DNA of 59,930 bases, counting the filler. It is 7 parts of 7 records of this genome, joined end to end, with 100 filler letters (N's around TTAATTAATTAA, not from the genome) between each part and the next. Parts side by side here need not be neighbours in the genome. Positions count along the whole stretch, not along the records: positions 1 to 8,427 come from SRR31156797_28901; 6 more parts are not named here. One strand, 5' to 3'. How positions within the stretch are numbered: position 1 is the first letter of the stretch; each line of letters opens with the position of its first letter. The notes under the pieces were generated by a model, which worked only from the letters and a program-made list of their open reading frames with translations, was not told the origin of the DNA and made no database searches. This document shows, piece by piece, positions 1-59,767 of this stretch. Made by a program: the position numbers and the translations under genes.

Positions 1-30
1 AACTAATGATAATTAGGAATTATGAATATG
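1..30 (+). repeat. Left copy of a perfect 30-bp terminal inverted repeat (AACTAATGATAATTAGGAATTATGAATATG), containing an RBS and codons M-N-M of the SIR2-STAND gene
   Basis: Exact reverse complement of 8398-8427; internal dyad CTAAT-gata-ATTAG at 3-16; AGGA just upstream of the ATG at 22. Confidence 0.97.
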
Positions 31-3000
31 CATAATGACAATGAGCGCTTTTTAAACTTTTTACTTACTGATCTTAAAGGTCCTGTGACTTTATTTTTAG
101 GAGCAGGAAGTTCTATGGAAGGTATAGATCGTAATGGAGAACCTTTCCCAAGTTTTGAATATATACAAAAACAAATTATAAACCGTTATGGTAATGATAT
201 ACAAAAAGAAAAAGCAAATGATGAAAATCAAAAAAATGTTTTTGAAATATTCCTTGAGGTAAATAAAGAACTCAGATCAGGAAAGATGGTTAACAGCGTT
301 CTCCTTGAGTACCTAAAAGGAAAACCAGGTTATGCGCATTATCAACTTGCTGCTTCTGTTTTTTCCTTTAAAGATAGTTTATACTTAACTCTAACTCCTA
401 ACTATGACAACCTTTTTAATCATGCAGTTGATAGGCTTTCATGCCACTCAAATAGCATTTTTCAATCATACACACCAGAAATCATCGAAGACAAAGACAT
501 TTCAAGTATAGTAAGAGAATATCCTATTATTATTAAGCTTTTTGGAGATTTAGGAGTTCATGAAAATTTATTTGATCCAAGGGAGCTTGATTGGCAAATA
601 TACAACCTTACAAAGCATGAATACTTTAAATCAAGCTTAAAATATCCAATATTGTTCATTGGATATTCATTTAGTGATAGACTATACGAAGACTTATTTG
701 GCGCTGATGGCAATACCGTGTATATCGTAAATCCTAATGAAATAAAGCTTGAAACTAAACGAAAGTGTATGCAGTTTTTTGGTACTTTTGGTGAATTCAT
801 GGGCGCTTTCCTTGATAAGTTAGAAGAAGATCATATTGATATTTTCGAAAATGTGAAAAACCTGCTATCTAAAATTGACCCAAATGATAAATTTCATCGT
901 TTAGCAGAAGTTATCCCTATAATGTTATCAATGAACAAGCGTGGAAAAGGTATTGTGGAGGATCGTTTTTTAATAAAAAAAGGAGATCAAGCTAGAAAAA
1001 AGTTTCTAATTACTCGTAAGGAAGCTACAAAATGGGTAGAAGAATTTTGTAAGTCAGACTTTCCTCTTATGCTTATTCTTGGAGAGTCAGGATTTGGCAA
1101 AAGTTGCTTTTTATATAACATATCCAATAAGCAAGATGATAATACGATAGTTTCTTTTTTTGCAGGCTCTGCACTTATTAATACTAGCGGGCTTTTGGGA
1201 AGAATTTGTCAGGAGTTTGGTAGTAATATTGACCATGCAAAGAGTCTTTTTAGTCACATAGATAAGTTATTAGGTAAAGAGCCCCAAAAGAAGCAGTGGT
1301 TGATTATTGTTGATGGAATCAACGAATCCCCTGACTATCACTATTTATTTGAAGATATTATAAAAATAGGGGAATGGAATTTTCCTAATATTAAGGTTCT
1401 TTATTCATGTCGTGCTATTTCATGGGAAAACAATTACTTGGCTAACGATTGCTTGAGAAACATGCATTTTTCTGGCTGGTCATGCATTATTGAAAACTTT
1501 ACTTCAGAAGAGAGAGAATTAGCATATGAGAGCTATCGCAGTATATTAGATATTCCTACCGCATATGATGATATTGATGATAGTGTTAAGCAGCATATGA
1601 CTAACCCTCTGATGATGAGAATGATAGTTTTAAGCTACCCTGGTGAGAAATTAATGGAATATGTCCCTAACACTGCGGTATTTGACAACTATTGGAAATT
1701 CCTAGAAGATAAATCAAAAAAAGACAATAACTCCCTAGATATGAACGTATTGCTGTCGCTTGCAAAATATAAAATTGCTCATTTTGCCGCAAGTAATATA
1801 AATAACAGTGATTTATTCTATTTGCGTGACCATCTTGGGGATCTACTGATAAATGAAAAGAATATTCTACCTTGGCAAGATGAGGGAGTTCTAGTTTGGG
1901 TCGATAATAAAGAAAAAAGCTTTCGATTTAGTTTTGATCGTTTTTATGAATATATACTTTCTCTGATTCTAATAGATGATTTTCGCAATAATAAGATAAA
2001 TAATCCTGTAACATGGGTTAATCTAACTCTTAAAGAATATAGTGAACAGCAGGCTCATTTCTCTTATACAGAAGCCCTTAAAGTGTTTTTGATTCATCAA
2101 GGATTGCAAAAACGTGACTTAGACTTACAAAGTTTAATAAATCAAATATCTGAAGGTACTTATCGTAATTTCGCAATACAGGTGCTTAGAGAACTTATAT
2201 TCGAAACTGATCAACCCGTTATGGAGGCTTTTGATAGTGTTATCTCGGTTGCACCTGAGGAGAACATAGATATTTACAAGGAAGCACAACTTACTATTGC
2301 TGCTAACTCATCTAAAATAATTGTTTCTGCTATCAGAGGCATCTTCAGTGGAGATGATAAACTTGCCCATAGGTGTATTCAGCTTCTTTGTACACTTTCA
2401 CCAGAAGATAAAAATGTTTTTACTGAGGATGTAAGAGCTTTTTTGGCAGACCTAGACTCCCTTAGTGAAAACTCTTCAAAGGGTTTCTTATATTTATATG
2501 TATTATATTTTTGCTGGCAGTTAAGATGTAATTCGACGATAGATTTATCCGATGTAAGTAGGGATTATTTTGACCTGATACAAACGTTTTCAAATCACAA
2601 AGATACTCTTATGAGTAGCTTCGTAAATCTTATTAAGCGCTGGGGATCACATTTTTTTAGTACGACAAGCCGTGGGAGTGAAGACCCTTTAAATTATCCG
2701 TGGAAACGCATGGGTACTCCTGAGCGAGCTTATGCACTAAGACTTAGTAAAGCTATAGGTAAGGAGTTTTCAGCATTAAATTCAGATGATATTGAAGCCA
2801 TAAGATTTTTTAGCTTAGAAACTCCAAAAGTTGATGAAATTACAAGCCCTAGACCTAGCGGTATTCCTCATAAATACCCAATCGAATCTATGTTAGGGCA
2901 ATGGGTATTAATTCGTCATGGGAAATCAAACTTCAATGAGATCATCAAAATGCTTGATGTGTTTATGAAAACACAAGATTTCTGCACTAGTGACTATTGC

Positions 3001-3702
3001 ATATGTATCCTTAGTGAGATCTTGAATTTTCATTATCAACCTTGTGATATTGAATATGGACAAGGATTCCAACAGCTTGTGAAGTGGGTTGATTACTTTT
3101 GTGAGAATGATGATTTCTTCTTTGATGTACTAAACAGACAGGATCCGTATAGCGATACGTATAATCCCCTGTGCAACACCGCTTCTATATTCGGAAAGCT
3201 TAATCCGGATAAGCCTAGTAATCAATACTTAGATAAATGGACAAACTCTGAAGATATTAGAAGAAAAAAACTTGGGCTATTTGCTGCTAGAAGACTATGG
3301 AGGAGATACGGAATACAGGTTCTGAACTCTGTTAGCTGTCTCTTTGATATTGATGAAAAGGACACCTATATTTGGTTAAATTACCTAATGAAAGAAGTGT
3401 CTTTGATAAATAGGAACCTTTTTGAACAGTACAGGGCTACGTTGAACTTGTCCGCAGAGAGATTACAGGAAATAGAAAGTACAAAAACCGTTTTAGCAAG
3501 TACAGAAAACTATAGTATTGAGCCAGTTTTAAGTTTACTTTTTAACTCTGGACTTAGTAATGTCAGAATAATTCAAGAGTGGCACAGCACGATCTACTCT
3601 TGTGATTCCCTAGATGATTTTTTGAAAAAACTATCAACACATTTGTATGAGTGGCAAAAAGACGAGTATCTAAATAGTAATTCTACCTTCTGCAACCCAT
3701 AA
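22..3702 (+). CDS. SIR2-like domain + STAND/NACHT-like NTPase + long helical C-terminal region; putative Avs/NLR-like anti-phage protein
   Basis: N-terminal LFLGAGSS, TPNYD, KLFGD and LFIGYSFSD (SIR2_2-like motifs); Walker A GESGFGKS at 1081-1104; Walker B WLIIVDGINE; NPLMMRM and FSFDRFYEY typical of STAND NTPases; 1226 aa. Confidence 0.8.
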   Translation: MNMHNDNERFLNFLLTDLKGPVTLFLGAGSSMEGIDRNGEPFPSFEYIQKQIINRYGNDIQKEKANDENQKNVFEIFLEVNKELRSGKMVNSVLLEYLKGKPGYAHYQLAASVFSFKDSLYLTLTPNYDNLFNHAVDRLSCHSNSIFQSYTPEIIEDKDISSIVREYPIIIKLFGDLGVHENLFDPRELDWQIYNLTKHEYFKSSLKYPILFIGYSFSDRLYEDLFGADGNTVYIVNPNEIKLETKRKCMQFFGTFGEFMGAFLDKLEEDHIDIFENVKNLLSKIDPNDKFHRLAEVIPIMLSMNKRGKGIVEDRFLIKKGDQARKKFLITRKEATKWVEEFCKSDFPLMLILGESGFGKSCFLYNISNKQDDNTIVSFFAGSALINTSGLLGRICQEFGSNIDHAKSLFSHIDKLLGKEPQKKQWLIIVDGINESPDYHYLFEDIIKIGEWNFPNIKVLYSCRAISWENNYLANDCLRNMHFSGWSCIIENFTSEERELAYESYRSILDIPTAYDDIDDSVKQHMTNPLMMRMIVLSYPGEKLMEYVPNTAVFDNYWKFLEDKSKKDNNSLDMNVLLSLAKYKIAHFAASNINNSDLFYLRDHLGDLLINEKNILPWQDEGVLVWVDNKEKSFRFSFDRFYEYILSLILIDDFRNNKINNPVTWVNLTLKEYSEQQAHFSYTEALKVFLIHQGLQKRDLDLQSLINQISEGTYRNFAIQVLRELIFETDQPVMEAFDSVISVAPEENIDIYKEAQLTIAANSSKIIVSAIRGIFSGDDKLAHRCIQLLCTLSPEDKNVFTEDVRAFLADLDSLSENSSKGFLYLYVLYFCWQLRCNSTIDLSDVSRDYFDLIQTFSNHKDTLMSSFVNLIKRWGSHFFSTTSRGSEDPLNYPWKRMGTPERAYALRLSKAIGKEFSALNSDDIEAIRFFSLETPKVDEITSPRPSGIPHKYPIESMLGQWVLIRHGKSNFNEIIKMLDVFMKTQDFCTSDYCICILSEILNFHYQPCDIEYGQGFQQLVKWVDYFCENDDFFFDVLNRQDPYSDTYNPLCNTASIFGKLNPDKPSNQYLDKWTNSEDIRRKKLGLFAARRLWRRYGIQVLNSVSCLFDIDEKDTYIWLNYLMKEVSLINRNLFEQYRATLNLSAERLQEIESTKTVLASTENYSIEPVLSLLFNSGLSNVRIIQEWHSTIYSCDSLDDFLKKLSTHLYEWQKDEYLNSNSTFCNP

Positions 3703-4605
3703 GTGATCATTAGCCCATCTTTTTTTATAAGCCTCTTCGCCTTTACCTAGGTCAAGGATAGGAATTCTTTTTTTTAGGCAATATCTTATTTGCATCATAA
3801 GCATAATTGAGCCTGGAGAATAGCTCTCAAAATTCTTATCATAGACTGTGTAGCATGTTTGAAATACATGAGATGACACACTGCCCATATGTAGTGCAAT
3901 TGGGCGCTCATCAGCAAAAAGCCCTGATAATATTCCACGACAAGAAATCTCTTGTGTATTTAATAGTTCATGCAGGAATGGTCTGACCCAAGGGGTAGCA
4001 AAATCATCCTTAACCTTATTCTCCTTAAATTGGTGACTTTTTAACTCTATCAATAAATCTAATATTTCCTTAGATTTTATAGATTGTTTAAAAACAACAT
4101 TATCGAAGTCCCTCTTTAGTCTACGCAACTTATTTTCAACCTCATGCCAAACCTTGCTCCCTTTTCGGCGCAGATCCCACCTATAATTCATCTCTCCTTT
4201 TGCAAGATTAATCAAACTTACTTTATGCCATGATAAATTAAGCGGCTTTATCTGTAACTCTGCCACTAAGTGATCAAAAACAAATTCTTTTATTTTAAGG
4301 TTATTTAGAAAACTCAAGTAGTCAGCTTTAGAATTATAGTTAAAAACAGGTCCATGGTAGTCACTGACTCCTAGTGCTATAGCTTCACACTTTCCGTCTG
4401 GGCAAGCGTGGAAAGGCATTACAGCCATAAGTTTCTGCTTATCCCAAAGCATTCCTACTTTAGTTGATGAATACGGAGCCAAAGCCTTTGTAAACCAAGG
4501 TGAGAAATTAGGATTGCGATATATTGGTGACTCAGTAAGCAACTGATCCCAAGCAACTAGCTTGTCATGCCCCAGTTCTAAAGCATCCCAAAGCTCATAT
4601 TTCAT
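3670..4605 (-). CDS. GNAT-family acyltransferase (CelD/BcsL-like, Acetyltransf_6 type)
   Basis: Motifs SDYHGP, YSPGSIM and LDLGKGEEAYKKRW; ATGA overlap with the upstream radical SAM gene. Confidence 0.8.
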   Translation of the reverse strand: MKYELWDALELGHDKLVAWDQLLTESPIYRNPNFSPWFTKALAPYSSTKVGMLWDKQKLMAVMPFHACPDGKCEAIALGVSDYHGPVFNYNSKADYLSFLNNLKIKEFVFDHLVAELQIKPLNLSWHKVSLINLAKGEMNYRWDLRRKGSKVWHEVENKLRRLKRDFDNVVFKQSIKSKEILDLLIELKSHQFKENKVKDDFATPWVRPFLHELLNTQEISCRGILSGLFADERPIALHMGSVSSHVFQTCYTVYDKNFESYSPGSIMLMMQIRYCLKKRIPILDLGKGEEAYKKRWANDHLWVAEGRITI

Positions 4606-5309
4606 ACAGTTCTCGCTTTAACATAATCTGAGCCATCACAGCGGGAGCATAGTAAACATGCTTCTTCTCTACTACCAGTCTTAAGAAGTTCTCTATACTT
4701 CTTAAAATTGCGACTTCCCCATATTTCCGGTATACTTTGTTTACTAATGTCACCCATTACATATTCACGGCCATAGTCCTGTACACACAAATACACTTCT
4801 CCGGTGTAGCCTATTATCAGCATCTCAGAAGGTGCGTAGCACGGTAGTTTTAAAGGTTTCTCAACAGCAGAAAGCCAACCTGCACGGGAACTGATCTCTA
4901 AGTCCTCAGGTTGTTTTAAAATAATCTTGGGATGTGGCTCAAAACCAATCCCTGAATGATCAGTCACAACCATTTGACTTATTCCAGAGCTGAATAAGTG
5001 TTGAGTTCGCCCATCTTCTAATAGGGTGCCGTTGCTATATAAGACTAGCTCAGCATCCGGTAGTTTTCGCTTTGCTAATTCCACTAAAGTATCCAAATCA
5101 TCTCTAAGGGTGGGCTCATTATAGCGATGAAAAGTAAGCATTCCTTTAAAATCTATTTTTTTTAACTCATTTAATACGTGATTGAAAAGTTCGTAAGTCA
5201 TATATTGATCTTCTTCAGGAGGATATTTAGATACAGGACAATACTTACATCTTAAATTGCAATCAACATTAACTTCAATTTCAATATGTAATATGCCTAT
5301 TGAGCACAT
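4602..5309 (-). CDS. Radical SAM/SPASM(twitch) enzyme, BtrN-like cyclitol dehydrogenase (copy 2)
   Basis: CNLRCKYC (CxxxCxxC), FHRYNEP, SNG, C-terminal CYAP...LCVQD...CSRC auxiliary-cluster cysteines; paralogue of 5297-6019. Confidence 0.85.
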   Translation of the reverse strand: MCSIGILHIEIEVNVDCNLRCKYCPVSKYPPEEDQYMTYELFNHVLNELKKIDFKGMLTFHRYNEPTLRDDLDTLVELAKRKLPDAELVLYSNGTLLEDGRTQHLFSSGISQMVVTDHSGIGFEPHPKIILKQPEDLEISSRAGWLSAVEKPLKLPCYAPSEMLIIGYTGEVYLCVQDYGREYVMGDISKQSIPEIWGSRNFKKYRELLKTGSREEACLLCSRCDGSDYVKARTV

Positions 5310-6019
5310 GTTATCTCTTTTGTTAATCCTGCAACCGGATAATCAATATTGTCACACAAGGCACAGAGATTCTTGATCTTGTTTCGTTTGCCGCTTGCTA
5401 ATAATTGCCTGGCTTCACTAAATGACTTACTAAACCATATTTCTTGTATGGTGCTATTCTGAAGGTTCCCCATTACTACTTTTTTCTTTGCATCTTCAAA
5501 ACAAAGCAAAACTTCACCATGGCAATTGATAATAAGCATCTCCATTGGAGCATAACACGGTATGTCAATTGGATGATTTAATTTATTAAGAAGTCCCCCT
5601 CTGTTTGTTAATTTAAGATTATTTTTAGTTAGCAATATCTGATTTTTACGCTTTGGGAATATTGCATCTTCATGAAGGGTAACAATAAACTGGTAAATGC
5701 CTGCATCCATCAAACTGCGATAGCGTTCATCTGTCAGTAGTGTACCGTTTGTAAACAATACTGGAACTGCCTTTGGAAGTATCTCTTTAACTTTTTGCAC
5801 AAAAAGTTCTAACTCTTCATGCAACAGTGGCTCATTATATAAATGAAATGAGAAGCGTCCATCAAACTTCATCTCTGCCAGCTGATTTAATATCTGATCA
5901 AATAAATCAGGGTCAATAAACTTTTCTTCTCTTTGCGGTAAAAAAAAGTTGGGACAATAAGGACACTTTAAATTACAAAGGCTATTAATCTCAACTTCTA
6001 CAACTATTGGAGCCTGCAT
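5297..6019 (-). CDS. Radical SAM/SPASM(twitch) enzyme, BtrN-like cyclitol dehydrogenase (copy 1)
   Basis: EVEINSLCNLKCPYCPN, GRFSFHLYNEPLL, TNG, NRGGLL, LCFED..KVVMGN, LCALC; size and motifs match butirosin BtrN as recalled. Confidence 0.85.
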   Translation of the reverse strand: MQAPIVVEVEINSLCNLKCPYCPNFFLPQREEKFIDPDLFDQILNQLAEMKFDGRFSFHLYNEPLLHEELELFVQKVKEILPKAVPVLFTNGTLLTDERYRSLMDAGIYQFIVTLHEDAIFPKRKNQILLTKNNLKLTNRGGLLNKLNHPIDIPCYAPMEMLIINCHGEVLLCFEDAKKKVVMGNLQNSTIQEIWFSKSFSEARQLLASGKRNKIKNLCALCDNIDYPVAGLTKEITCAQ

Positions 6020-8406
6020 TAAATAACACTCTCTATAGCATCTTCTATACGGTTCATATGCTCCTTATTTCCTAAAAACATACGGTGCGGAAAAGTTATC
6101 GTATTGTTTACAAAGTTCTCTACTACCGGCAAGTGAACATTACATTCGCGGAGTATATTGTTAATATGATCTTGTGGAAACCTGTTGCAAAACTGAGGCT
6201 TATATAAGCGGTGACGATATATAGGTAAATCAAAAGAAAATATTCGAACGCCGAGCATACTGGTAAGCTGCTCTGCAATTTTATTTACTTTTTCTTCAGA
6301 GAGGACTGGTAGGCTGACAGCATACTCATATATAGATGCCTTTATGTTATAATCATACTTAAAGTAAGTCTTGACATCTGGTAGCTTATTTAAGGATTCG
6401 TTAAGACTTAGGGCATTGCTAGCTCTTAATTTATTATCATCCATCAGATTTTCTAGTCCTGTACGCAATAACTTGCTTTGTATTTCACTAAGGCAATAGT
6501 TAAAACCTTGCTTTGTGCCTTTTTCTGCCAAATGAAAAGAGTACTGTTCTTGTACTGAGTTCCAGACTCTCCCGTCAGCTCGTAATTCTTGAAGAGTCTC
6601 ATAGTCTTCAAGATCATTACACAATACAACTCCACCTTCACCTGATGTCAGAACTTTTGTTTGCTGCATACTGAACGTTGAAAAACGACCGAAGGAGCCA
6701 ACTTTCCGCCCATTATATGTAGCGCCATGAGCTTGTGAACAATCTTCAATAAGCGGAATATTATATTTTTTAGAAAGCTTTATAAAACGATCAATATCTG
6801 CAACTGAACATAATGAGTGAACAATAATGATCGCTTTAACATTTTTATCAATTTTAGCTTCGGCCTCTTCAGGGCACATACACAGATTACTTGGATCTAA
6901 ATCACAAAAGACAGGGATGCCTCCTATTGATAACACAGATGAAGCACATGCGACCCATGGCGATGGCGGAACTAGTACTTTATTACCAAAGCATACTCCC
7001 GAAGCTTCCAGTGCTATTGATAACGCAGCAGAACCAGTTGAACAGGCAACCCCATATTTCATACCAATAAAGTCAGAAAACTCTTTGCAAAACAATTCTT
7101 CTTCAGTGTTGTTTTGTAAACGTTCACCACTTATTGCCATAGTGCCTACATCTAATATTTCTTCTAAAGCAGAACTTGGCAAACGATTTTGTTGTGGCCA
7201 TTTTGGCCAACCCCAGATATCGTTTATAACCTTTTTGTCACTACCAGTTTTTTGGTCTTTAAGTTTTTCAGCCCAGTTAAAAAGTCTTGCATACTGTATA
7301 TCAATATCATGTACTCTCTCCTGCCCGCTATTAGTCAAAGGAGTTTTATAAAAGTAGCCTAAACTGTCTAGTAATCCCTTGAAGCCTGCTGATTCTGCTT
7401 GAAAAATTAATCTTGCTAAATCTAAGACTGCAGGAGCAGCTAAAATTGAGTCCCACCCAAGCCAATTTAGTTTTAGCTGCATCTTTTGATTAAACATGCC
7501 AGAAAAGTCTATATTGTCCCATGCTTCCTTTGCATCGCCACGTGGCGGATAATAATGAATATTGACCTGATGGCTATATGAGCTGAGTTCATTTCCAGGA
7601 TCATAACCTAAAATTTCTGATAAACATTCACGTTTTGAATTAATCTTAGTTGCTACATTAGAGCTGTCTGAAAGTGTTAATCCATCACCGTTGCCTAGTA
7701 TGTTGGTACTGAACCAACCATCTATTTTAAAGTTTTTATCTCTGAATGCAGGTGCTAATAATGTTTTTAAAAAAGTTTGACCTGTTTTACCATCTCGTCC
7801 AGAGTAAATGGTCCCTTTTTTTAAAGACAAAGAGGCTAACGGTTCAATTTCACAGCAGTTAGGTGTGAAATTTATGAAATGTGCCCCAGACTCTATAGCA
7901 AAACGAAAATACAATCGTCCAGGAGTCACAGATGTATCCTGCCAGGACAAGTTATCAATATTTTCCCAATCAACATAATTTTCAATTACTTCAGGTTCAG
8001 TTGGGCAAAGATTAATAACCACTACACTCGTGATATTATTTTTATCTCTAAATTCATCAAGCCAGGAGAGTTCAATATTAAACCATTCTTTAATGTTAGT
8101 TATATTTGCTATAAGGCCATTTCGAAGCGGAATACTTTTAAGCTGACTTTCTGATAAGGATACTATTTTATCTGGAACACAGGCGTGATGTTTAACACTA
8201 CTCAAGACGTCTGTTTTGTTGACATCCCATCCTGTAATAGCTAGATCATCAAAATCATCAAAAGGAAGATTAAGTTTATTGAATTTTGGAGAATTGGTAA
8301 CCATACCCAGTTTGGCACTATTAGTGCCTCCATATGCAAGAGCGGTGGCTAAAGTGCTGCCAATTGCTCCTCCAAGTCCTGCTACTAAAAGTAATTTCAT
8401 ATTCAT
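6019..8406 (-). CDS. Fusion: myo-inositol-1-phosphate synthase (N-terminal) + DegT/DnrJ PLP aminotransferase of the BtrR/StsC inosose-aminotransferase type (C-terminal)
   Basis: Ino1 motifs GRDGKTGQT, NILGNGDG, YYPPRGDAKEAWD and DSILAAP; aminotransferase motifs WPKWPQ, IEDCSQAHG, FSMQQTKVLTSGEGG (PLP Lys), QELRADGR and QGFNYCLSE; single uninterrupted 795-aa ORF. Confidence 0.9.
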   Translation of the reverse strand: MNMKLLLVAGLGGAIGSTLATALAYGGTNSAKLGMVTNSPKFNKLNLPFDDFDDLAITGWDVNKTDVLSSVKHHACVPDKIVSLSESQLKSIPLRNGLIANITNIKEWFNIELSWLDEFRDKNNITSVVVINLCPTEPEVIENYVDWENIDNLSWQDTSVTPGRLYFRFAIESGAHFINFTPNCCEIEPLASLSLKKGTIYSGRDGKTGQTFLKTLLAPAFRDKNFKIDGWFSTNILGNGDGLTLSDSSNVATKINSKRECLSEILGYDPGNELSSYSHQVNIHYYPPRGDAKEAWDNIDFSGMFNQKMQLKLNWLGWDSILAAPAVLDLARLIFQAESAGFKGLLDSLGYFYKTPLTNSGQERVHDIDIQYARLFNWAEKLKDQKTGSDKKVINDIWGWPKWPQQNRLPSSALEEILDVGTMAISGERLQNNTEEELFCKEFSDFIGMKYGVACSTGSAALSIALEASGVCFGNKVLVPPSPWVACASSVLSIGGIPVFCDLDPSNLCMCPEEAEAKIDKNVKAIIIVHSLCSVADIDRFIKLSKKYNIPLIEDCSQAHGATYNGRKVGSFGRFSTFSMQQTKVLTSGEGGVVLCNDLEDYETLQELRADGRVWNSVQEQYSFHLAEKGTKQGFNYCLSEIQSKLLRTGLENLMDDNKLRASNALSLNESLNKLPDVKTYFKYDYNIKASIYEYAVSLPVLSEEKVNKIAEQLTSMLGVRIFSFDLPIYRHRLYKPQFCNRFPQDHINNILRECNVHLPVVENFVNNTITFPHRMFLGNKEHMNRIEDAIESVI

Positions 8407-8427
8407 AATTCCTAATTATCATTAGTT
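8398..8427 (-). repeat. Right copy of the 30-bp terminal inverted repeat, containing the RBS and codons M-N-M of the Ino1-aminotransferase gene
   Basis: CATATTCATAATTCCTAATTATCATTAGTT is the reverse complement of 1-30 and ends exactly at the contig edge. Confidence 0.97.
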
Positions 8428-8527
8428 NNNNNNNNNNNNNNNNNNNNNNNNNNNNNNNNNNNNNNNNNNNNTTAATTAATTAANNNNNNNNNNNNNNNNN
8501 NNNNNNNNNNNNNNNNNNNNNNNNNNN
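8428..8527. other. Artificial contig spacer (N run with TTAATTAATTAA six-frame stop)
   Basis: Identical 100-bp design repeated six times in the window. Confidence 0.99.
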
Positions 8528-8553: not shown

Positions 8554-9246
8554 ATGAGAGGATTTACCAATAGTTCCGAAATAAGGATGTACGCAGCCTT
8601 TGTGCTGATTCTGCTGCCAACTGCAGCTCTTTGCTATAAAGGAGAGCTGATCCTTGGAACAATAGGCTCCATACCACTAATGGTAATTCTTTTTGCAATG
8701 CTTGCTGGCTCTGTCATTGAGATCCCATTTGCAAAAATACGCTCCAAAAAGCCGGAACAACTTTTTAAGTATGCACCAATTCTCGAAGAGATATACTCAG
8801 TTCCAATCATAGAGGAACTTAACATCGGAAAACAGAGAGTATTTGATACAACACTCACCCTCAACCTTGGGGGGGCAGTCATTCCCTCGCTTGCATTGCT
8901 ATACCTTTTACTAACACAACCAAACAACACTGCTCTGGAGATAATGCTCATAGTCATCCTCGCAGTGACCATGCTAACAGAAATAATAGGAGGGGTCGGG
9001 AGCCTTATCAATGAATATATAGGATTGATAGCACTTCCGTTTGCATTATTAGTTGCCCCCGAAAACGCTGCCACAGTGACATTTATAGCAGGTGTCGGAG
9101 GTATCTTAGTAGGAAACGCCATATCAATTGCAGCATTCAACAAAGAAAGAACAGGGAGTGCCTTTTTAAGCATCGGCGGTGCAGGCAGCTTCAAATCAAT
9201 TTATGTTACAACGATTATTGCCAGCCTGATCTCATACTTCGCCTAA
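8554..9246 (+). CDS. DUF1614-family archaeal membrane protein
   Basis: Multiple hydrophobic helices; TLNLGGAVIP and LSIGGAGSF motifs. Confidence 0.7.
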   Translation: MRGFTNSSEIRMYAAFVLILLPTAALCYKGELILGTIGSIPLMVILFAMLAGSVIEIPFAKIRSKKPEQLFKYAPILEEIYSVPIIEELNIGKQRVFDTTLTLNLGGAVIPSLALLYLLLTQPNNTALEIMLIVILAVTMLTEIIGGVGSLINEYIGLIALPFALLVAPENAATVTFIAGVGGILVGNAISIAAFNKERTGSAFLSIGGAGSFKSIYVTTIIASLISYFA

Positions 9247-13647: not shown

Positions 13648-14510
13648 TAACCATGTTTTCCAATGCAAAACTCAATGAAAAAATAGCATTTGGGCTATTA
13701 AAAATCGCGACGGGAATGGTTGTTGCCTTTGTATTAGTAATTCTGTATTACATAGTATCCAATGGATTCAGCGCCCTGAGCATTGAATTCATAACCGAGA
13801 TGCCGCGAAACAGGATGACAGAGGGAGGAATATATCCCGCCATTGTCGGTACAACATACCTCATAATAGGTTCAATGGCTGTTGCCCTGCCACTGGGAAT
13901 GCTGGCTGCAATTTACCTGACAGAATACTCAAAACCAGGAAAGATGACCTGGGCAATCGAGATGGCAATTAGTAACCTTGCAGGTACCCCATCCGTTGTT
14001 TTCGGACTGTTCGGTCTTGCAATGTTTGTCAAGTATCTTGGTTTTGGACCTTCCGTCCTTTCTGCATCTTTAACACTTGCACTGCTTATATTGCCAGTAA
14101 TCATAAGAGCGAGCCAGGAAGCACTCCTTACAGTACCAAAGGAATACAGGGAAGCATCACTTGCACTGGGAGTTACCAAGTGGGAAACAATCAGGAGAGT
14201 AGTCCTCCCTGCTGCAATACCCGGAATGATAACCGGTGCTATACTTAGTATAGGAAGAGTTGCAGGAGAGACTGCACCGATATTGCTTACAGGAGCTGCC
14301 TACTTCCTTCCAAGACTCCCGGATTCAGTATACTCACAATTCATGGCACTGCCATACCACCTCTACGTACTTGCTACCTCAGGTACCAGCATTGCCCAGA
14401 CAAGACCCATACAATATGGTACAGCACTGATTTTGCTTACAATAGTACTGTGTGTAAATGTTGTCGCAGTAAGCTTAAGATCACACTATAGAAAGAAACT
14501 CAAAAGATGA
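13644..14510 (+). CDS. pstA: Phosphate ABC transporter permease
   Basis: NLAGTPSVVFGLFG, EASLALG and GRVAGETAP. Confidence 0.95.
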   Translation: MITMFSNAKLNEKIAFGLLKIATGMVVAFVLVILYYIVSNGFSALSIEFITEMPRNRMTEGGIYPAIVGTTYLIIGSMAVALPLGMLAAIYLTEYSKPGKMTWAIEMAISNLAGTPSVVFGLFGLAMFVKYLGFGPSVLSASLTLALLILPVIIRASQEALLTVPKEYREASLALGVTKWETIRRVVLPAAIPGMITGAILSIGRVAGETAPILLTGAAYFLPRLPDSVYSQFMALPYHLYVLATSGTSIAQTRPIQYGTALILLTIVLCVNVVAVSLRSHYRKKLKR

Positions 14511-14552
14511 CCATATCAAATCCCAATTCAAGATCAGACACGAGGATAACAT

Positions 14553-15323
14553 ATGCCAGAAAACTACGAAAATGGTACCGAAATAGAGGTTAAGGACCTT
14601 AATCTCTGGTACGGAGACAACCATGCCCTCCACGACATATCAATAGACATTCCAAAAAACAGTGTCACAGCATTCATAGGCCCCTCAGGATGTGGAAAGT
14701 CTACATTCCTCAGATGCCTTAACAGGATGAACGACCTGATTCCAACCTGTAAGATAGAAGGTCATGTCAATATCAGCGGAGAGGACATATATTCTAAGGA
14801 AACTGATGTTGTAGACCTTAGAAAAAAGGTAGGAATGGTATTCCAGAAACCAAACCCATTCCCAATGTCCATATTTGACAATATATCATATGGACCCCGC
14901 ATTCATGGCATGAGCAAGAAAGAAATGCCAGGAATTGTCGAAAAAGCATTGCATTCCGGAGCACTCTGGGCAGAGGTCTCCGACAGACTTGATGTTTCTG
15001 CCCTGGACCTTAGTGGCGGTCAACAACAAAGGTTGTGTATCGCAAGAACACTTGCAGTAAAACCTGAAGTAATACTATTTGACGAGCCCTGCAGTGCACT
15101 GGATCCTATATCCACAAGTAAGATCGAAGATCTTATAATGGAACTCAAGAAAGATTATACAATTGTTATTGTTACACATAATATGCAACAAGCTGCCAGG
15201 ATATCTGACTATACAGCTTTCTTCCTGCTGGGAGACCTTATTGAGTTCGGAAAGACGAACCAGATATTTGAAAACCCACAGGAGAAAGAAACAGAGGATT
15301 ATATTACCGGCAGATTCGGGTGA
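14553..15323 (+). CDS. pstB: Phosphate ABC transporter ATPase
   Basis: [31 protein letters not shown] and YITGRFG. Confidence 0.97.
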
Positions 15324-15329
15324 AGTTAA

Positions 15330-15980
15330 ATGGCAAGGGATCAATTCCAGCAAAATCTGGAAACGCTTAAAGAATTCGTTATTGAAATGGGAAAATTATC
15401 CCATAACGCAATTGTTGACTCAATGCAGGTCCTCAGATCGCAAGATGCCGAGCTTGCAGAGAAGATATACCAGGGTGACGAGAAAATCGATGAGTATGAA
15501 CTGAAAATCGAGAAATGTGCCACGCAACTTATTGCACGGCAGAATCCAACTGCAGGAGATATGAGACTTGTTATATCCTGCTTTAAGATAGCAATTGATC
15601 TTGAGAGAATGAGTGACCTTGCTGTTGACATCGCCAATGTTGCCAAATGCATGGAAGGAAAGGATAATGAACCTATTGATAACATACTCAAAATGGCAGA
15701 GCTTTGCGATGAGATGTTGCAGCAGTCTATCAAAGCCTTCGCGACATTGAATAGAAAACTGGCACATGATACAGCACTGAAGGACGATGAAATTGACAAA
15801 CTCTTTTACGGAACACAAAATCGCCTTATTGAAATGATGATAGAGGACAAGGCAGTTATCAGCGATGCATCACACCTTCTGCTGGTACTTCGCTACCTCG
15901 AAAGATGCGGCGATCACGCATGTAATATATGTGAAAGTATCGTTTACATGGCAGCAGGCCAGAGAGTTAATCTCAATTGA
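15330..15980 (+). CDS. phoU: Phosphate signalling protein PhoU
   Basis: DLERMSD and LERCGDHACNICE repeats. Confidence 0.95.
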   Translation: MARDQFQQNLETLKEFVIEMGKLSHNAIVDSMQVLRSQDAELAEKIYQGDEKIDEYELKIEKCATQLIARQNPTAGDMRLVISCFKIAIDLERMSDLAVDIANVAKCMEGKDNEPIDNILKMAELCDEMLQQSIKAFATLNRKLAHDTALKDDEIDKLFYGTQNRLIEMMIEDKAVISDASHLLLVLRYLERCGDHACNICESIVYMAAGQRVNLN

Positions 15981-16016
15981 TTTCCGGGCATCTAATAACA
16001 GGACAGTATTCCTGCG

Positions 16017-16052
16017 ACCTCTCTAAAAAGGAGGTAAAACTTTTTCTTTTTT
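16017..16052 (+). terminator. Hairpin + T-tract terminator after pstSCAB-phoU
   Basis: ACCTC...GAGGT stem followed by TTTTTCTTTTTT. Confidence 0.55.
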
Positions 16053-16156
16053 GAAGTTTTAGAAGCCATCACAGCCTTTGTGCTGAATGCAAAAATAACT
16101 CGCCAATGCGTTTTCAAAAAAAGCACATCTGACATACCACCAACATAAATATATAC

Positions 16157-16176
16157 AATATATAGCACTATATATT
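16157..16176. promoter_or_regulatory. Inverted repeat AATATATAG-ca-CTATATATT upstream of the second phoU; putative operator
   Basis: Perfect 9-bp arms; shares the TATATAG half-site with the pstS upstream repeat. Confidence 0.5.
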
Positions 16177-16348
16177 ATATGTATATGTGCCTGGCTGCTT
16201 TTAGGAATGAACATACATAATTATCATATGAAACGCTCCACTGACCAGAGCTAAAATTTCCAGCCTACAACACGATTAACAATATTCAGCGCATACCTGA
16301 AACTATACAACACTACTGAATGATAATAACAATAAGAGTTGGTTCAAA

Positions 16349-16999
16349 ATGACACGTACAAAATACCATGAAACCCTGGATATCCTTAGAAATGATATCA
16401 CAGACATGGGAAAACTGGCAAATGAAGCCATAAACAACTCCATTATAGCTCTAAAAGAGATTGACAAAGATCTTGCAAAAACTATTATTGATGGCGATGA
16501 GGCAATTGATGACTATGAGATGAAAATCGAGAAATCAATTTCCCGGATCATAGCGCTTCAAAGTCCTACTGCAAAGGACATGAGACTTGTCACAGCATGC
16601 CTTAAAATAGCAATTGATATTGAAAGGATGAGTGACCTTGCAGTAAATATCGCAGAAATAGCATTGAACATGGAAGGAGACCATGTAAAACCCCTTGTGG
16701 ACATACCCATAATGGCAGAAACAGCCAACGGTATGCTCGAGCAGGCAATAGAGGCTTTTACAAACAATGATGCTAAACTGGCAGAAGCAACCGCAAAGAT
16801 AGATGATAAAGTTGACAGTTCTTTCTATACAATAGAAAAAGAACTAATTGAGATGATGATAGAGGATGACAGCATAATAACCAATGCATCACATCTTTTG
16901 TTTGTACTACGCTATATTGAGAGAATAGGCGACCATGCCTGCAATATATGTGAAAGCATAGTGTACATCGTTGAAGGCCAGAGAGAAGACCTCAACTGA
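16349..16999 (+). CDS. phoU: Second PhoU paralogue
   Basis: DIERMSD and IERIGDHACNICE; colinear with 15330-15980. Confidence 0.95.
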   Translation: MTRTKYHETLDILRNDITDMGKLANEAINNSIIALKEIDKDLAKTIIDGDEAIDDYEMKIEKSISRIIALQSPTAKDMRLVTACLKIAIDIERMSDLAVNIAEIALNMEGDHVKPLVDIPIMAETANGMLEQAIEAFTNNDAKLAEATAKIDDKVDSSFYTIEKELIEMMIEDDSIITNASHLLFVLRYIERIGDHACNICESIVYIVEGQREDLN

Positions 17000-17028
17000 C
17001 CTTAAGAATATTATTGCATAAGACCCGG

Positions 17029-18253
17029 CTAAAAGTCAAACAATGAGCTCTGGGATTTTTTATCACCAGATGTTTGCTGTGGCTGGGATTTTACATCTGT
17101 TTCCTTTTTCTTGAAGCTATTTACAGGAGATTCCTGAGGTTTGTCCGAGAAATCAAACAGACCTTTCTGTTTTGAGTCATAGTCAAGGTTTGCTATATCT
17201 ACCCCAAACACACCCAGTATTCGTTCCACAGGAGGCAATAACTGTTTCTTGACATAATAATCTACATCAATAGTAAGATTATTCTCCTTGACATATTCAG
17301 GGTCTTCAGCCCTGTTGACGAACATATCTTTGCCTGCTATGATCACAAAGGGTATGCGTTCCCCCACAGGCGGAGGAGAACCGGTCCTGCGCTCTATCTT
17401 CTCAGCTACGGTTAGATGTGGCTGTTTATTCTTGTAACTGGAAGCTTTTTTAGAGAACATACGTGTCATGGTCAGATCTTCAATGATGTCAGAATCTTTC
17501 TTCACATCAAGATTTCTCACACCATCTACAACACTTCGCACATGCTGGACCGCACCCTCAACATCGCCTTCCTTAAGTACCATTTTAAGAATCCTGTTGA
17601 GAGTCTTAGAAGTCATTTCACACCAGTCTCTACGAACTGTTTCCATGCCCTTAACCTTTATACCATCCTTCCAACCGTCACCTGATGGCTCAAAGACCCA
17701 TATAGCATAACGCTTCTTGGCAATGAACAGGGCACGCTTTGCAATTGACTCGAACTCCAGCTCCATTGGGTCAGGAAGTGAGTCTGAAACAGTTGCCGCA
17801 ATCCTGCTGCCTACAAGACCTGCATCATCGAGAGATATTTCTTTTTTAGAACTGCACTGGACAAACACACTGTCCGTATCACCATAGACCACTGAAAGAG
17901 AGACTATGTTGTCATCAGGATTTATTGAAGAAAGCTCCTCTGTGAAATATGCCTTGTCATCTCTCAAGATGACCTTACTAATAGTGCCGTTTATAAGAGA
18001 GCGTGTGTTCAGGATATTGTTCCTTCCAAAACTGGTTACAGCATTAGCAAGAGCCATGCTGTACAACCTTGCCCTTGTGTATCCTGAATAACCATAGAAA
18101 CTGTTCAGCAATATTTTCAGGGCAAGCTGAGTGGCATCAAGTACACGATACTCGGAGTCATTTGATGCATTTTTCATCTTTTGCTTGGTTTCCACCCTTC
18201 TCTGTAACAAGCTTTCAAGAATTGATGGCATTATTCCTTTGGAAACTTCAGCA
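17029..18253 (-). CDS. polB: Family B DNA polymerase, C-terminal part (5' end truncated by contig edge)
   Basis: QLALKILLNSFYGY, YGDTDS, KKRYA and KGMETVRRDW. Confidence 0.95.
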
Positions 18254-18353
18254 NNNNNNNNNNNNNNNNNNNNNNNNNNNNNNNNNNNNNNNNNNNNTTA
18301 ATTAATTAANNNNNNNNNNNNNNNNNNNNNNNNNNNNNNNNNNNNNNNNNNNN
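18254..18353. other. Artificial contig spacer
   Basis: N run with TTAATTAATTAA. Confidence 0.99.
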
Positions 18354-18692
18354 TTCCATCATCATGGCCACCAGGTTTTTTCCGATGTCGTGAAGGTCTC
18401 CCTTTACGGTTCCGATGATCACGGAGCCGCCCGATGCGCCTTCACCCTCTCCCAGCATGGGTTTTAAAATAGTCACACAGGCGCCCATGGCCTGGGCTGC
18501 CATAAGGACTTCCGGGATGAACATATCACCGGATTCCATTTTTTCACCGACAATATCCATGCCTGCGATGAGGCCGTTATTCAGGATCTCATTGGCGGGT
18601 GTATCTTCCGCCAGGGCGGCGTTTACCAGTCCATTCAGTTTCTCTGCGTCACAGGACACCAAGGCGTCGGTCATTGCGTTAAAATCTGTCAT
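18354..18692 (-). CDS. Corrinoid (B12-binding) methyl-carrier protein, MttC/MtgC-like (3' end truncated)
   Basis: MFIPEVLMAA cap domain and GTVKGDLHDIGKNLV (DxHxxG). Confidence 0.92.
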
Positions 18693-18706
18693 TTTTTTCT
18701 CTTTCT

Positions 18707-20158
18707 CTAAAAGTTATTTATTGTCAACTGTGTTTGAACATCAACGTTGGTCTTTTCGGGCAACATGTATGACCTGAATACCGGGCACTTGCTGGCAAGG
18801 TAGTAGGCGGCTGCGCTGGTTATGACTGACCAGCCCGTGGCCGTGCAGACATAAAATATCTTCTGCCTGGGCATGATGTTTATTGAATCATAGCAGGACA
18901 GGTAAGCGATAACGCCGATGGCGAAGCAGGCCAGCGATATCAGGTTAAATCCTCCGGTATACCGATACCTTCGGTTGCCTTTGATCATGTATGCATCTTT
19001 CATCGATATTTTTTGATGCCGGACGAAAAAATAATCCGTAATAATCAAGGCCAGGATCGGGCCGACTATAACCCCCACCACGCCTAAAAACGCATTGTAA
19101 TACGTCCAGATTCCTCCCCAGAAGAGCAGGAGCAGAATAAATGAGGACCATCCAAGGCAAACCAACTTGAAGTCTGCTGTGGGCCTGAGGATTTTTGAAC
19201 TGACGGTAACGCTGTACAGATCTATGGCTGTTGTGGTCACATTGGCAATGGCCACAACAAAAACGGACATCATGCCCAGATAGGCCCCACCGAGGCTGAT
19301 GAGCCATTCTGTGGGGTCCAGGCTGACCACGCCGGTTTTTGCGGCCATGACCAGGCCGGTCATACCGCCTAAAATGACGAATCCGCCCATGATGACGCTA
19401 AAGCCAACAACATGCCCCCAATAGGATATCCTTTCGGATTTGGCAAATCTGGGGATGACCCCCAGTACCGATATCCAGGAAAGGACATAGGCCAGGTTCC
19501 ATTCAACGGCAATGCTGTATGGGGTCATGACAGACTCGGCATCAATGGGCGTCAGGTTAGTCAGCCCATTCCAAGTCATATTGTTTAACAATAGAATCAT
19601 CATGACGCCCCCCACAGCAAGGAGGCTCGGCACCATGATGCGGGTGGCCCATTTCACAACAATTGGCCCCCTGACTGCTAAAGCGGTCCCGATCACCACA
19701 CATGTTGATCCAAGCCAGGGCGTCCAGGAGGAACTGATCTCAATACCTGCCGCAGCCAGAATCTTAATGAAAGAGTTGGCATACAATTGGGCATTGATTG
19801 CAGAATAGCCCCACCCGGAAATAAAAATGAGGAAGGTCATGATCACCATGCCTTTTTCTCCAAAGATGGCCCTCATAAAGAAAAACACATCCATACCGTG
19901 ACGGCATGAAATAATGGTTAATGTATAGGCGAACAGCCCGCCTAAAATGTATACAAATAAAGTTGAAAAAACGAGTTGTTTAAAATTGAGTATGGAGGCC
20001 AGCCATCCGCCCTGCACATAGCACCAACTGGCGATGGCGTATCCCCCGGTCAGCCACACCATGTCCCAGAAGGAGTAGATGCGTTCCCCAGGGATGTTCA
20101 GGGTCGGGATGGTGCCGTAAAAGGCTTCTTTTGAAGCTGCCGAATTAATATTTTTCAT
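18707..20158 (-). CDS. NCS1-family (purine-cytosine/hydantoin permease-like) transporter
   Basis: About 12 TM segments; RAIFGEKG, ANVTT and IITDYFFVR...Y.YTGGFN motifs. Confidence 0.75.
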   Translation of the reverse strand: MKNINSAASKEAFYGTIPTLNIPGERIYSFWDMVWLTGGYAIASWCYVQGGWLASILNFKQLVFSTLFVYILGGLFAYTLTIISCRHGMDVFFFMRAIFGEKGMVIMTFLIFISGWGYSAINAQLYANSFIKILAAAGIEISSSWTPWLGSTCVVIGTALAVRGPIVVKWATRIMVPSLLAVGGVMMILLLNNMTWNGLTNLTPIDAESVMTPYSIAVEWNLAYVLSWISVLGVIPRFAKSERISYWGHVVGFSVIMGGFVILGGMTGLVMAAKTGVVSLDPTEWLISLGGAYLGMMSVFVVAIANVTTTAIDLYSVTVSSKILRPTADFKLVCLGWSSFILLLLFWGGIWTYYNAFLGVVGVIVGPILALIITDYFFVRHQKISMKDAYMIKGNRRYRYTGGFNLISLACFAIGVIAYLSCYDSINIMPRQKIFYVCTATGWSVITSAAAYYLASKCPVFRSYMLPEKTNVDVQTQLTINNF

Positions 20159-58555: not shown

Positions 58556-59767
58556 TTATAAACGAGGATAGTTCTTTCTTATACTTTCAATTCTTCTTCC
58601 TCCTTTTTGCTTTAGATATGTTGATGTAGTTCTTAAATCAGTATGTCCCATCTGATCACTAATATCTTTTTCGGGGATATTTGCTTCACTTGCTAAAACA
58701 CCTCCTGTATGTTTCCAGGAATAAAATTTATATTCTTCAGGCATATTTAAAGCTTTGCGATATTTTACAAATCTAAATCTAAGATTGTTTTTGCCCAGAT
58801 GCTCTGGTCCCGGTTTGTAATCCTTACCAATTACATAATGATCCCTTGGAAATGTATGCAGTTGATATACGTTTCTTAGTTTTAATAGAAAATGTTCCGG
58901 TATTTCCTTTACATTTTCTCTTCTGGTTTTAAAGTTGGCTCTATTAATATGTATTATACCTCTGGCAAAATCGATATCGCCAATCTTCAACATTCTTAAT
59001 TCATGCCCTGGACGTATGTAGCAATAGAACTCAAATTCAATAGCCATCCATAGTTGCGGATCATTTTCCTTGATGTATTTCTTAAATGGCTCAATATCGA
59101 ATTTTTGAATAGGACGTGGAGCCTGGTCATTAATTCTGTCTGTTGTAGGAATTTTATATACAGGATTTATTTTCAGAGCTTTTTCTTCAACAATAGTTTC
59201 GAAAAGATTGAAAATAATCTGCCTGTATTTTTGAATACTCCTTTTTGATAATGTTCTTTCATCAATTAAAAAATTAAAGAACTCAATTATTGTATTATTA
59301 TCAATTGCAGTTACATCAGCATCAGCAAATCCTTTCGCATTTAGCCAGGCATTAAATGTGCGTAATTTACTTCGGTAAGTGTTGGCTGTTCCGTGCGAGT
59401 TCTTTTTAATAACCTGCTCCATAAACAAACTACCAAAATAATTGATAGTTCTGTTTTTGTTTTTCTTAGTGTTGTAAATATCTACAATATGTCTGTACTC
59501 CAGCTGATCTTCATAAATACCTTTACTGGTATCTTCAAAAGGAGTCCATCCGTTTTCTAATTTATCCAGATACTCTTCAGCTTTCTTATTGGCAGCTTCT
59601 AGCCGTTCATCGAAGTCCTTATACTTATGAAGGCCTTTGTAATCTTTAAAGCGCTCCATCTTTCCGGTTCGTGGATTTCTAACAGAATAGTAAACGAACC
59701 ATTTCTTTAAAAGATCACCTCCGCAGGTATTCACCTTCGGAGGGATCGCAATCTTCATTCTTGACAT
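58556..59767 (-). CDS. int: Tyrosine recombinase / phage integrase
   Basis: N-terminal arm-binding region (KWFVYY), SAM-like domain, YIRPGHELR, FKT, YSWKHTG and QMGHTDLRTTSTY. Confidence 0.92.
   Translation of the reverse strand: MSRMKIAIPPKVNTCGGDLLKKWFVYYSVRNPRTGKMERFKDYKGLHKYKDFDERLEAANKKAEEYLDKLENGWTPFEDTSKGIYEDQLEYRHIVDIYNTKKNKNRTINYFGSLFMEQVIKKNSHGTANTYRSKLRTFNAWLNAKGFADADVTAIDNNTIIEFFNFLIDERTLSKRSIQKYRQIIFNLFETIVEEKALKINPVYKIPTTDRINDQAPRPIQKFDIEPFKKYIKENDPQLWMAIEFEFYCYIRPGHELRMLKIGDIDFARGIIHINRANFKTRRENVKEIPEHFLLKLRNVYQLHTFPRDHYVIGKDYKPGPEHLGKNNLRFRFVKYRKALNMPEEYKFYSWKHTGGVLASEANIPEKDISDQMGHTDLRTTSTYLKQKGGRRIESIRKNYPRL

Follow-up and report, generated by a model that had tools for sequence, protein, structure and literature searches.

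The stretch of DNA analysed here (the window, 59,930 bases) consists of seven separate contigs, joined by runs of N around TTAATTAATTAA (a spacer at 8428-8527 and five more). GC contents of the contigs are 0.36, 0.42, 0.48, 0.37, 0.60, 0.58 and 0.39, and the contigs probably originate from several organisms. Our subject is contig 1 (window bases 1-8427). In this contig, a gene for a SIR2-like/nucleoside triphosphatase (NTPase) protein and a four-gene enzyme operon read inward from the two copies of a terminal inverted repeat, and an earlier reading of the sequence (hereafter the original prediction) took the whole for an invertible either/or cassette. The features of contig 1 are as follows.

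1..30, + strand: left arm of the inverted repeat, 30 of about 32 nt; holds AGGA (15-18) and the likely start codon ATG (28-30)
9..23, + strand: 15-nt core ATAATTAGGAATTAT, a dyad ATAAT-N5-ATTAT and candidate crossover or binding site
28..3702, + strand: arm 1, predicted SIR2-like plus P-loop NTPase (STAND-like) protein of 1224 aa; Pfam SIR2_2, NPHP3_N and AAA_22 near or just under their cut-offs; Walker A motif
3670..3702: 33-nt overlap of the convergent 3' ends, between open reading frames (ORFs) 22..3702(+) and 3670..4605(-)
3670..4605, - strand: arm 2 gene 4, Acetyltransf_6 (FemAB-like GNAT) protein, from domain search
4602..5309, - strand: arm 2 gene 3, radical SAM / SPASM protein, from domain search
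5297..6019, - strand: arm 2 gene 2, radical SAM / SPASM protein; only weak pVip matches in PADLOC
6019..8400, - strand: arm 2 gene 1, fusion of a myo-inositol-1-phosphate-synthase (MIPS)-like part and a DegT/StrS-type pyridoxal-phosphate-dependent (PLP) aminotransferase, 795 aa; Pfam NAD_binding_5, Inos-1-P_synth and DegT_DnrJ_EryC1
8398..8427, - strand: right arm of the inverted repeat, which read inward equals 1-30; core 8405-8419, start codon ATG 8400-8398

By sequence comparison, bases 1-30 match the reverse complement of 8398-8427 perfectly, as the original prediction held. The next-best inverted pair in contig 1 is 29 nt long at 76%, and the 30-mer, searched at up to three mismatches, has just two sites in the window (at least two matches in 0 of 100 shuffles). 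The elements proposed inside it, CTAAT-GATA-ATTAG, AGGA and ATG-AAT-ATG, are all present, but the conserved dyad is ATAAT-TAGGA-ATTAT (9-23). The two proteins were also said to share an M-N-M start, which is probably wrong. The frame of arm 1 is open from ATG-22 as well (22..3702, 1226 aa), and that of arm 2 gene 1 over 6019..8406(-). Homologues of both end genes begin where the third codon stands (MKLILVAG.., MHENND..), and AGGA precedes ATG-28 by 9 nt but ATG-22 by only 3 nt. In all likelihood, therefore, the start codon is the last triplet of the repeat, and the two proteins have no peptide in common.

In the arm 1 protein, Pfam scores are 23.6 bits for SIR2_2 (cut-off 24.5), 24.3 for NPHP3_N (24.8) and 19.6 for AAA_22 (27). 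The Walker A motif, GESGxGKS, and a D...NE block are invariant in the family of related proteins, named SIR2-NTPase below. No repeat-type sensor domain was detected in this protein, and PADLOC returned 0 families at E<=0.01 for its 1226-aa form. Arm 2 had been described as an aminocyclitol operon. MIPS-like and DegT/StrS domains are indeed fused in its first gene; the assignment is not established, all NCBIfam aminotransferase families scoring below cut-off and no equivalog passing. An aminocyclitol-like product is a fair guess from these domains. The two arms read inward with a 33-bp overlap of their last genes, exactly as described, and this overlap leaves no space for a terminator between them. 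None of the five cassette proteins of the window has a recombinase domain, which also agrees with the original prediction.

The repeat in the assembly

The k=31 contigs of a public sequencing run, X1, include an identical 8427-nt record at a depth of 18.7. They also include a 32-nt contig at a depth of 36, whose bases 3-32 correspond to window 1-30 and which has two fitting places in the stretch. Since this 32-nt node joins both contig ends at twice the depth, the 30-nt repeat size reflects the overlap of k-1 nt between contigs in a de Bruijn graph. The actual inverted repeat is about 32 nt long and present in two copies per genome, its flanks diverge beyond it, and its two outermost bases fall outside contig 1. 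Hence, that the sequence breaks off at an identical repeat base left and right is true of the contig but describes a property of the k=31 assembly. A longer inverted duplication with a promoter on each side, once offered as an alternative, is excluded by the shared 32-nt node and by the relatives described below, in which conservation stops at the core.

A contig that stops exactly at a repeat on both sides, and whose sole holder (X1) may be its own source, could be a fold-back or chimeric product of assembly, or could end in a multi-copy insertion sequence. Such an artefact is largely refuted, and we regard it as very improbable. A k=31 graph yields ends of this kind for any inverted repeat of at least 30 nt. 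In addition, the 30-mer occurs nowhere else in the window and has 0 matches in genome_contigs and 0 in metagenome_contigs, so that the search for it in other genomes suggested with the original prediction came back empty. The insertion-sequence end, which had been named there as a way for the idea to fail, does not fit a repeat node at twice the depth rather than many-fold, nor independent assemblies, from other samples and assemblers, that hold the same architecture with the repeat inside the contig.

Within the window, no matching ends had been seen on the other contigs, and we find none: the other six have no 15-mer in common with the 60-nt ends of contig 1 and no terminal inverted repeat longer than 2 nt. 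As a separate observation, the last 40 bases of contig 7 (59891-59930) are tRNA-like by eye.

Related loci and the adjacent recombinase

Relatives of the two end proteins are all metagenomic. Four full-length relatives of the fusion enzyme are 60-62% identical to it; for the SIR2-NTPase there are four at 50-52% and two at 26%. For one relative of each, the longest contig is 8019 nt, which hints weakly at a similar cassette cut at both ends. A profile search with the SIR2-NTPase identified five loci in species-representative genomes and two in Joint Genome Institute (JGI) metagenomes. The full-length genome loci L001, L002, L003 and L004 are found in metagenome-assembled genomes (MAGs) labelled Bacteroidota, Binataceae, Chthoniobacterales and Acidobacteriota, respectively; among the JGI loci, L006 is full-length and L007 is a fragment. 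Six full-length loci are counted in what follows (the window, L001-L004 and L006). The remaining genome locus, L005, stays outside these counts: its 492-aa SIR2 protein is not set in the cassette architecture, and its single motif match, with three mismatches, is at chance level (53 of 200 shuffles). The SIR2-NTPase family is rare, with 94 representative clusters at E<=1e-30, and both domains are covered in about 19 of the 150 representative clusters listed. Proteins P0130 and P0133-P0136 carry an N-terminal extension of 210-440 aa or reach up to 2058 aa, which suggests fused forms.

All six full-length loci combine a SIR2-NTPase gene convergent with an enzyme operon and an inverted repeat at both start codons. 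In the five full-length relatives, the operon comprises two genes, for a methyltransferase-glycosyltransferase-2 fusion and for a GINT1_N-like protein. The enzyme arm of the window is wholly unlike that of these five loci, and the core of the repeat is retained. Overlaps of the arms at their 3' ends measure 88, 45, 93 and 17 nt in four relatives; in L001 the two ends stop 2 nt short of each other.

Ten aligned arms (window, L002, L003, L004 and L006) share the core ATAAYYARKRATTAT, positioned 1-13 nt upstream of the start codon and built as a 5-5-5 dyad, ATAAT-N5-ATTAT, around the ribosome-binding site. In L002, L003, L004 and L006 the core differs at 0-3 positions, with every change in one arm of a locus repeated in the other. 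L001, from Bacteroidota, has a variant core, ATAACTAATTATTAT, in both arms, 2-5 nt from the start codon. An unchanged 15-nt core is found in L002, L003 and L006, with protein identity at just 36-37%, and where the core is changed (L004, L001 and the window) both arms of the locus are altered together. Moreover, DNA conservation between L002 and L003 sets in sharply at the core on both sides. Because so few nucleotides separate core and start codon in these arms, transcription must enter from outside, and the earlier claim that there is no room for an internal promoter stands.

In three MAGs (G002-G004), a 16-mer search at up to two mismatches retrieved the two borders and one intragenic site each, and a reversed control gave 0, which makes the core a specific mark of cassette borders; the third sites were dropped as intragenic. 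Among 301 genomes of the order of G003, the core pair is present in G003 alone, and two single matches with one mismatch were dropped because no long ORF follows either of them. In viral contigs, 43 single 16-mer matches were dropped, as none stands before a long ORF of the SIR2-NTPase family. In one viral group (L032, L034, L038, L049, L052, L053 and L061) the 16-mer lies at the 3' end of a conserved 250-aa ORF with divergence just after it; this has the look of a chance match to the end of a gene, with no recombination site.

A tyrosine recombinase gene (306-322 aa; Phage_integrase plus SAM_1) is located just outside the enzyme-arm repeat in 4/4 relatives that have flanking sequence there; the L004 contig stops at the repeat. 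The gene reads inward in L001 and L006, with its stop codon at most 8 nt from the repeat, and outward in L002, while L003 holds a partial gene of the first 98 codons. Pfam Phage_integrase E-values range from 1e-34 to 3e-43. In an alignment of three of the recombinases, the catalytic residues R154, K178, H247, R250, H273 and Y282 are invariant, and on this alignment the enzyme is catalytically intact. Its best NCBIfam matches are XerD and XerC, at 200-255 bits against cut-offs of 330-335. As each MAG encodes two better-scoring Xer candidates elsewhere, the cassette recombinase is a dedicated extra Xer-like paralogue and not XerC or XerD proper. The integron integrase model gives 115-123 bits against a cut-off of 265, and the two sites are inverted and identical, which argues against an integron.

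The JGI fragment L007 (1850 nt) encodes a SIR2-NTPase member, 43% identical to that of L006 over 97 aa. A Xer-like recombinase gene stands beside its SIR2 gene and diverges from it, the opposite arrangement in a single case. Another Xer-like recombinase, 46% identical to that of L007, is encoded at 275-1255 of L065 (contig C990 of G004); it is a candidate recombinase of the cassette type, was dropped as a lead, and lies on a different contig from the L004 cassette, to which it is not joinable. In the window, contig 7 shows a weak tyrosine-integrase-like match at 58562-58723 (-), 54 aa long at 30% identity, which has no relationship with the recombinase of the cassette.

Divergence runs in parallel in the three cassette proteins, which are 72, 75 and 69% identical between L002 and L003, and 40, 43 and 46% identical between L001 and L006. 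Cassette GC is also below flank GC in L002, L003 and L006. Because of this joint divergence and lower GC, the cassette is, as judged by these comparisons, passed on as one unit, also horizontally. This raises a different explanation, in which the inverted Xer-type sites are the ends of a mobile module, moved or exchanged between replicons, and inversion, with which such movement is compatible, is incidental. It would account for the 69-75% identity between proteins from MAGs labelled Binataceae and Chthoniobacterales, for the lower GC, for a core that is kept though the window lineage has an entirely different enzyme arm from the other five loci, and for the Xer-like nature of the recombinase; a role of this kind has been proposed for Acinetobacter dif modules, which are reported with inversely oriented Xer sites (PMC13141974, PMC9947245). 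We nevertheless consider it unlikely. The recombinase gene, though outside the sites, accompanies the cassette (57% identity across 98 aa, L002 vs L003), and mobility does not explain why sites are placed 1-13 nt before start codons with a ribosome-binding site in every arm. In addition, tblastn with the SIR2-NTPase gave no match among 72,556 plasmids and among 50,697 records of phages, and no relative of it was found in the viral contigs searched.

Two loci have surroundings of their own kind. In L006, the cassette and its recombinase lie, together with a nitrobindin-like gene and a 536-aa ORF that has no Pfam match, between the copies of an outer inverted repeat (9058-9091 / 18595-18628, 34 nt, 82%), which may mark the ends of a larger mobile element. 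L001 is surrounded (188-1075, 14415-17375, 18247-19821) by genes for a SLATT_2 protein, a 986-aa AAA_11/AAA_12 helicase adjoining the recombinase, RadC and DUF5712, which are gene types of defence islands or mobile DNA.

Proposed inversion of the cassette

Identical inverted sites, a dedicated recombinase, promoterless arms and overlapping 3' ends together have the look of a site-specific inversion switch, a reading to which we give somewhat better than even odds. We lean slightly towards the reading that the recombinase inverts the promoterless cassette between its two sites and thereby swaps which arm meets which outside expression signal. Contig 1 would then be the body of a recombinase-bounded flip cassette, in which two unrelated convergent promoterless units each stand directly behind one copy of the repeat of about 32 nt. 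The recombinase would pair both inverted sites and invert the whole cassette, so that an arm served by expression signals of the left flank in one orientation would be served by those on the recombinase side in the other. These outside signals would differ, expression would be either/or, and the flank of contig 1 would carry the recombinase. As the 3' ends overlap without a terminator, strong transcription of one arm would also oppose the other. The invertible cassette of the original prediction thus gains indirect support from inverted sites bounding inward promoterless arms at 6/6 loci and from a tyrosine recombinase outside them in 4/4 relatives. A wider and more tentative claim is that these loci form a cross-phylum family of self-contained flip cassettes, in which a 6-8.4-kb segment would offer one outside promoter either a giant SIR2-like/NTPase protein or a sugar/inositol pathway, with an exchangeable enzyme arm.

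Several points weigh against inversion. There is no read-level or assembly evidence of both orientations in one population, and the graph of X1 cannot tell which orientation, or both, is present; X1 is also the sole run found with the stretch, perhaps the source of the window, and a second run, X2, gave no contig that could be placed on it. The flanks of contig 1 beyond the repeat, hence any recombinase there, are outside the assembled contig, and none of the other six contigs of the window encodes the cassette recombinase. The enzyme arm is on the recombinase side in 4/4 motif-bearing relatives with flank. The assemblies of L001-L003, made at k=127-141 according to contig names, pass uninterrupted through both repeats. 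Since genes read inward on both flanks in L001 and L006, the arms of these loci could be co-expressed. Geometry by itself makes a repeat inverted when it stands before each of two convergent genes. The core common to the relatives is just 15-19 nt, and many tyrosine-recombinase core sites are longer; L007 has no core motif within three mismatches. Finally, consensus promoter and terminator scans of L002 and L003, uninformative in that their counts stood at or below those of shuffles, gave no promoter-like site that reads inward from either flank.

Some of the same observations would suit a shared cis-regulatory element. The core would then be an operator or translation signal that co-regulates both arms, its inverted placement would follow simply from their convergence, and the recombinase would belong to the surrounding mobile DNA. 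A 5-5-5 dyad that holds a ribosome-binding site and keeps an almost constant spacing to the start codons would be expected of such an element, as would three genes that co-evolve in step like the parts of one system, the constant orientation relative to the recombinase (4/4 loci) and the inward-reading flanks of L001 and L006. We find this explanation quite improbable. No cassette encodes a DNA-binding regulator, and co-regulation leaves unexplained a recombinase that is adjacent at 4/4 loci across four phyla with otherwise unrelated flanks. The repeat of the window is identical over about 32 nt, well past the conserved core. An RNA leader role of the repeat also finds no signal, with no Rfam match at E<=0.1 and fold z-scores from -0.73 to +0.64.

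Possible roles and known inversion systems

Among solved structures, the NADase KomC (PDB 8zsf; E 2.8e-07, about 200 residues aligned) comes closest to the SIR2-like domain, and the window family has in common with it the SIR2-like signature GAGxS ... TNYD ... FIGYSLSD. Unlike KomC, the family carries a P-loop NTPase and a 550-aa tail. It also differs at the KomC histidine (FHGD; H146N in the title of a mutant entry), which aligns with a phenylalanine in LFGD (KLFGD, residues ~170-175 of arm 1), invariant in 7/7 and 6/6 aligned members of the SIR2-NTPase family. Because this histidine is replaced by an invariant phenylalanine, NAD+ cleavage should not be assumed, and the SIR2-like domain may bind rather than cleave a nucleotide. 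The family lacks the catalytic histidine that is canonical in SIR2 NADase defence effectors of the ThsA, DSR and KomC type, and the NLR-like SIR2 effector originally proposed for arm 1 is therefore not secure. Since the SIR2-NTPase is constantly paired with sugar/inositol-modifying enzymes, in two enzyme versions, the pairing suggests that they are functionally linked, as alternatives or as partners. A defence role of the cassette is conjecture.

The invertible segments of phage Mu (G), phage P1 (C) and cryptic prophages (P), which are flipped by the Gin, Cin and Pin invertases, are a few kb long, have repeats of about 30 nt and contain two convergent gene sets. They are expressed from signals that lie beyond the segment, and the gene for the recombinase adjoins one of the repeats. 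This layout is the same as that of the window cassette. The enzymes of these segments are serine invertases, and the alternating genes are homologous tail-fibre variants with a constant N-terminal part, whereas the window family has a tyrosine recombinase, unrelated arms and a candidate crossover site upstream of the start codon. PinQ is a prophage example of such an invertase (PMC12529663).

The hsdS shufflons of type I restriction systems are phase-variable and are reported to have an adjacent tyrosine recombinase, PsrA (PMC7096588). As in the window family, an adjacent tyrosine recombinase is combined with inverted repeats, which there lead to programmed inversions. The shufflon repeats are located within coding sequence and reshuffle domains of one gene family, whereas in the window whole unrelated units would be swapped.

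The original prediction knew of no described system with this arrangement; its geometry does have precedents. In Ureaplasma parvum, segments bounded by short inverted repeats at the mba locus and at the UU172 element are flipped by a XerC-type tyrosine recombinase, and the mba/UU376 switch alternates two oppositely oriented genes (PMC3599477). The likeness extends to short inverted repeats at the 5' ends of two opposed genes, a Xer-type recombinase and, there, alternate expression. The cargo of the Ureaplasma switch is single surface-antigen genes, and its recombinase gene is elsewhere in the genome. In the window family, in contrast, the arms are 3.7-4.7 kb long (one being a four-gene operon), the cargo is a cytoplasmic enzyme/NTPase set and the recombinase is adjacent; inversion is proposed here from sequence.

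Acinetobacter dif modules are reported to be bordered by inversely oriented XerC/XerD sites (PMC13141974, PMC9947245). They resemble the window family in holding gene modules between inverted Xer-type sites and in showing evidence of horizontal spread. They differ in their use of the host XerC/D, their location on plasmids and sites described without fixed relation to start codons, whereas the window family has a dedicated adjacent paralogue and sites that carry a ribosome-binding site.

No description of this cassette was found in the literature. The accessible text of Milman et al. 2023 (PMC9881135) has 0 mentions of SIR2, and the filter of this systematic survey demanded one repeat inside coding sequence, so that repeats situated entirely upstream of genes fell outside it; its supplementary tables may still list such loci. 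Overall, the switch geometry is of an already known kind, and what appear new are the cargo, a site placed where translation of two unrelated units begins and the conserved cross-phylum pairing with a Xer-like recombinase.

Known programmed inversions flip promoters or reshuffle variants of one gene family. If the cassette does invert, a conserved switch that exchanges one entire module for another, unrelated one at a single translation start would extend the known range of phase variation, and would provide a binary heritable switch between two unrelated cellular programmes. It would also link a SIR2-like/NTPase family that is still uncharacterised with a pathway for a small molecule or glycan, and would offer a short, portable recombinase-and-site pair. 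In k=31 assemblies, contigs with terminal inverted repeats of k-1 nt can flag such elements.

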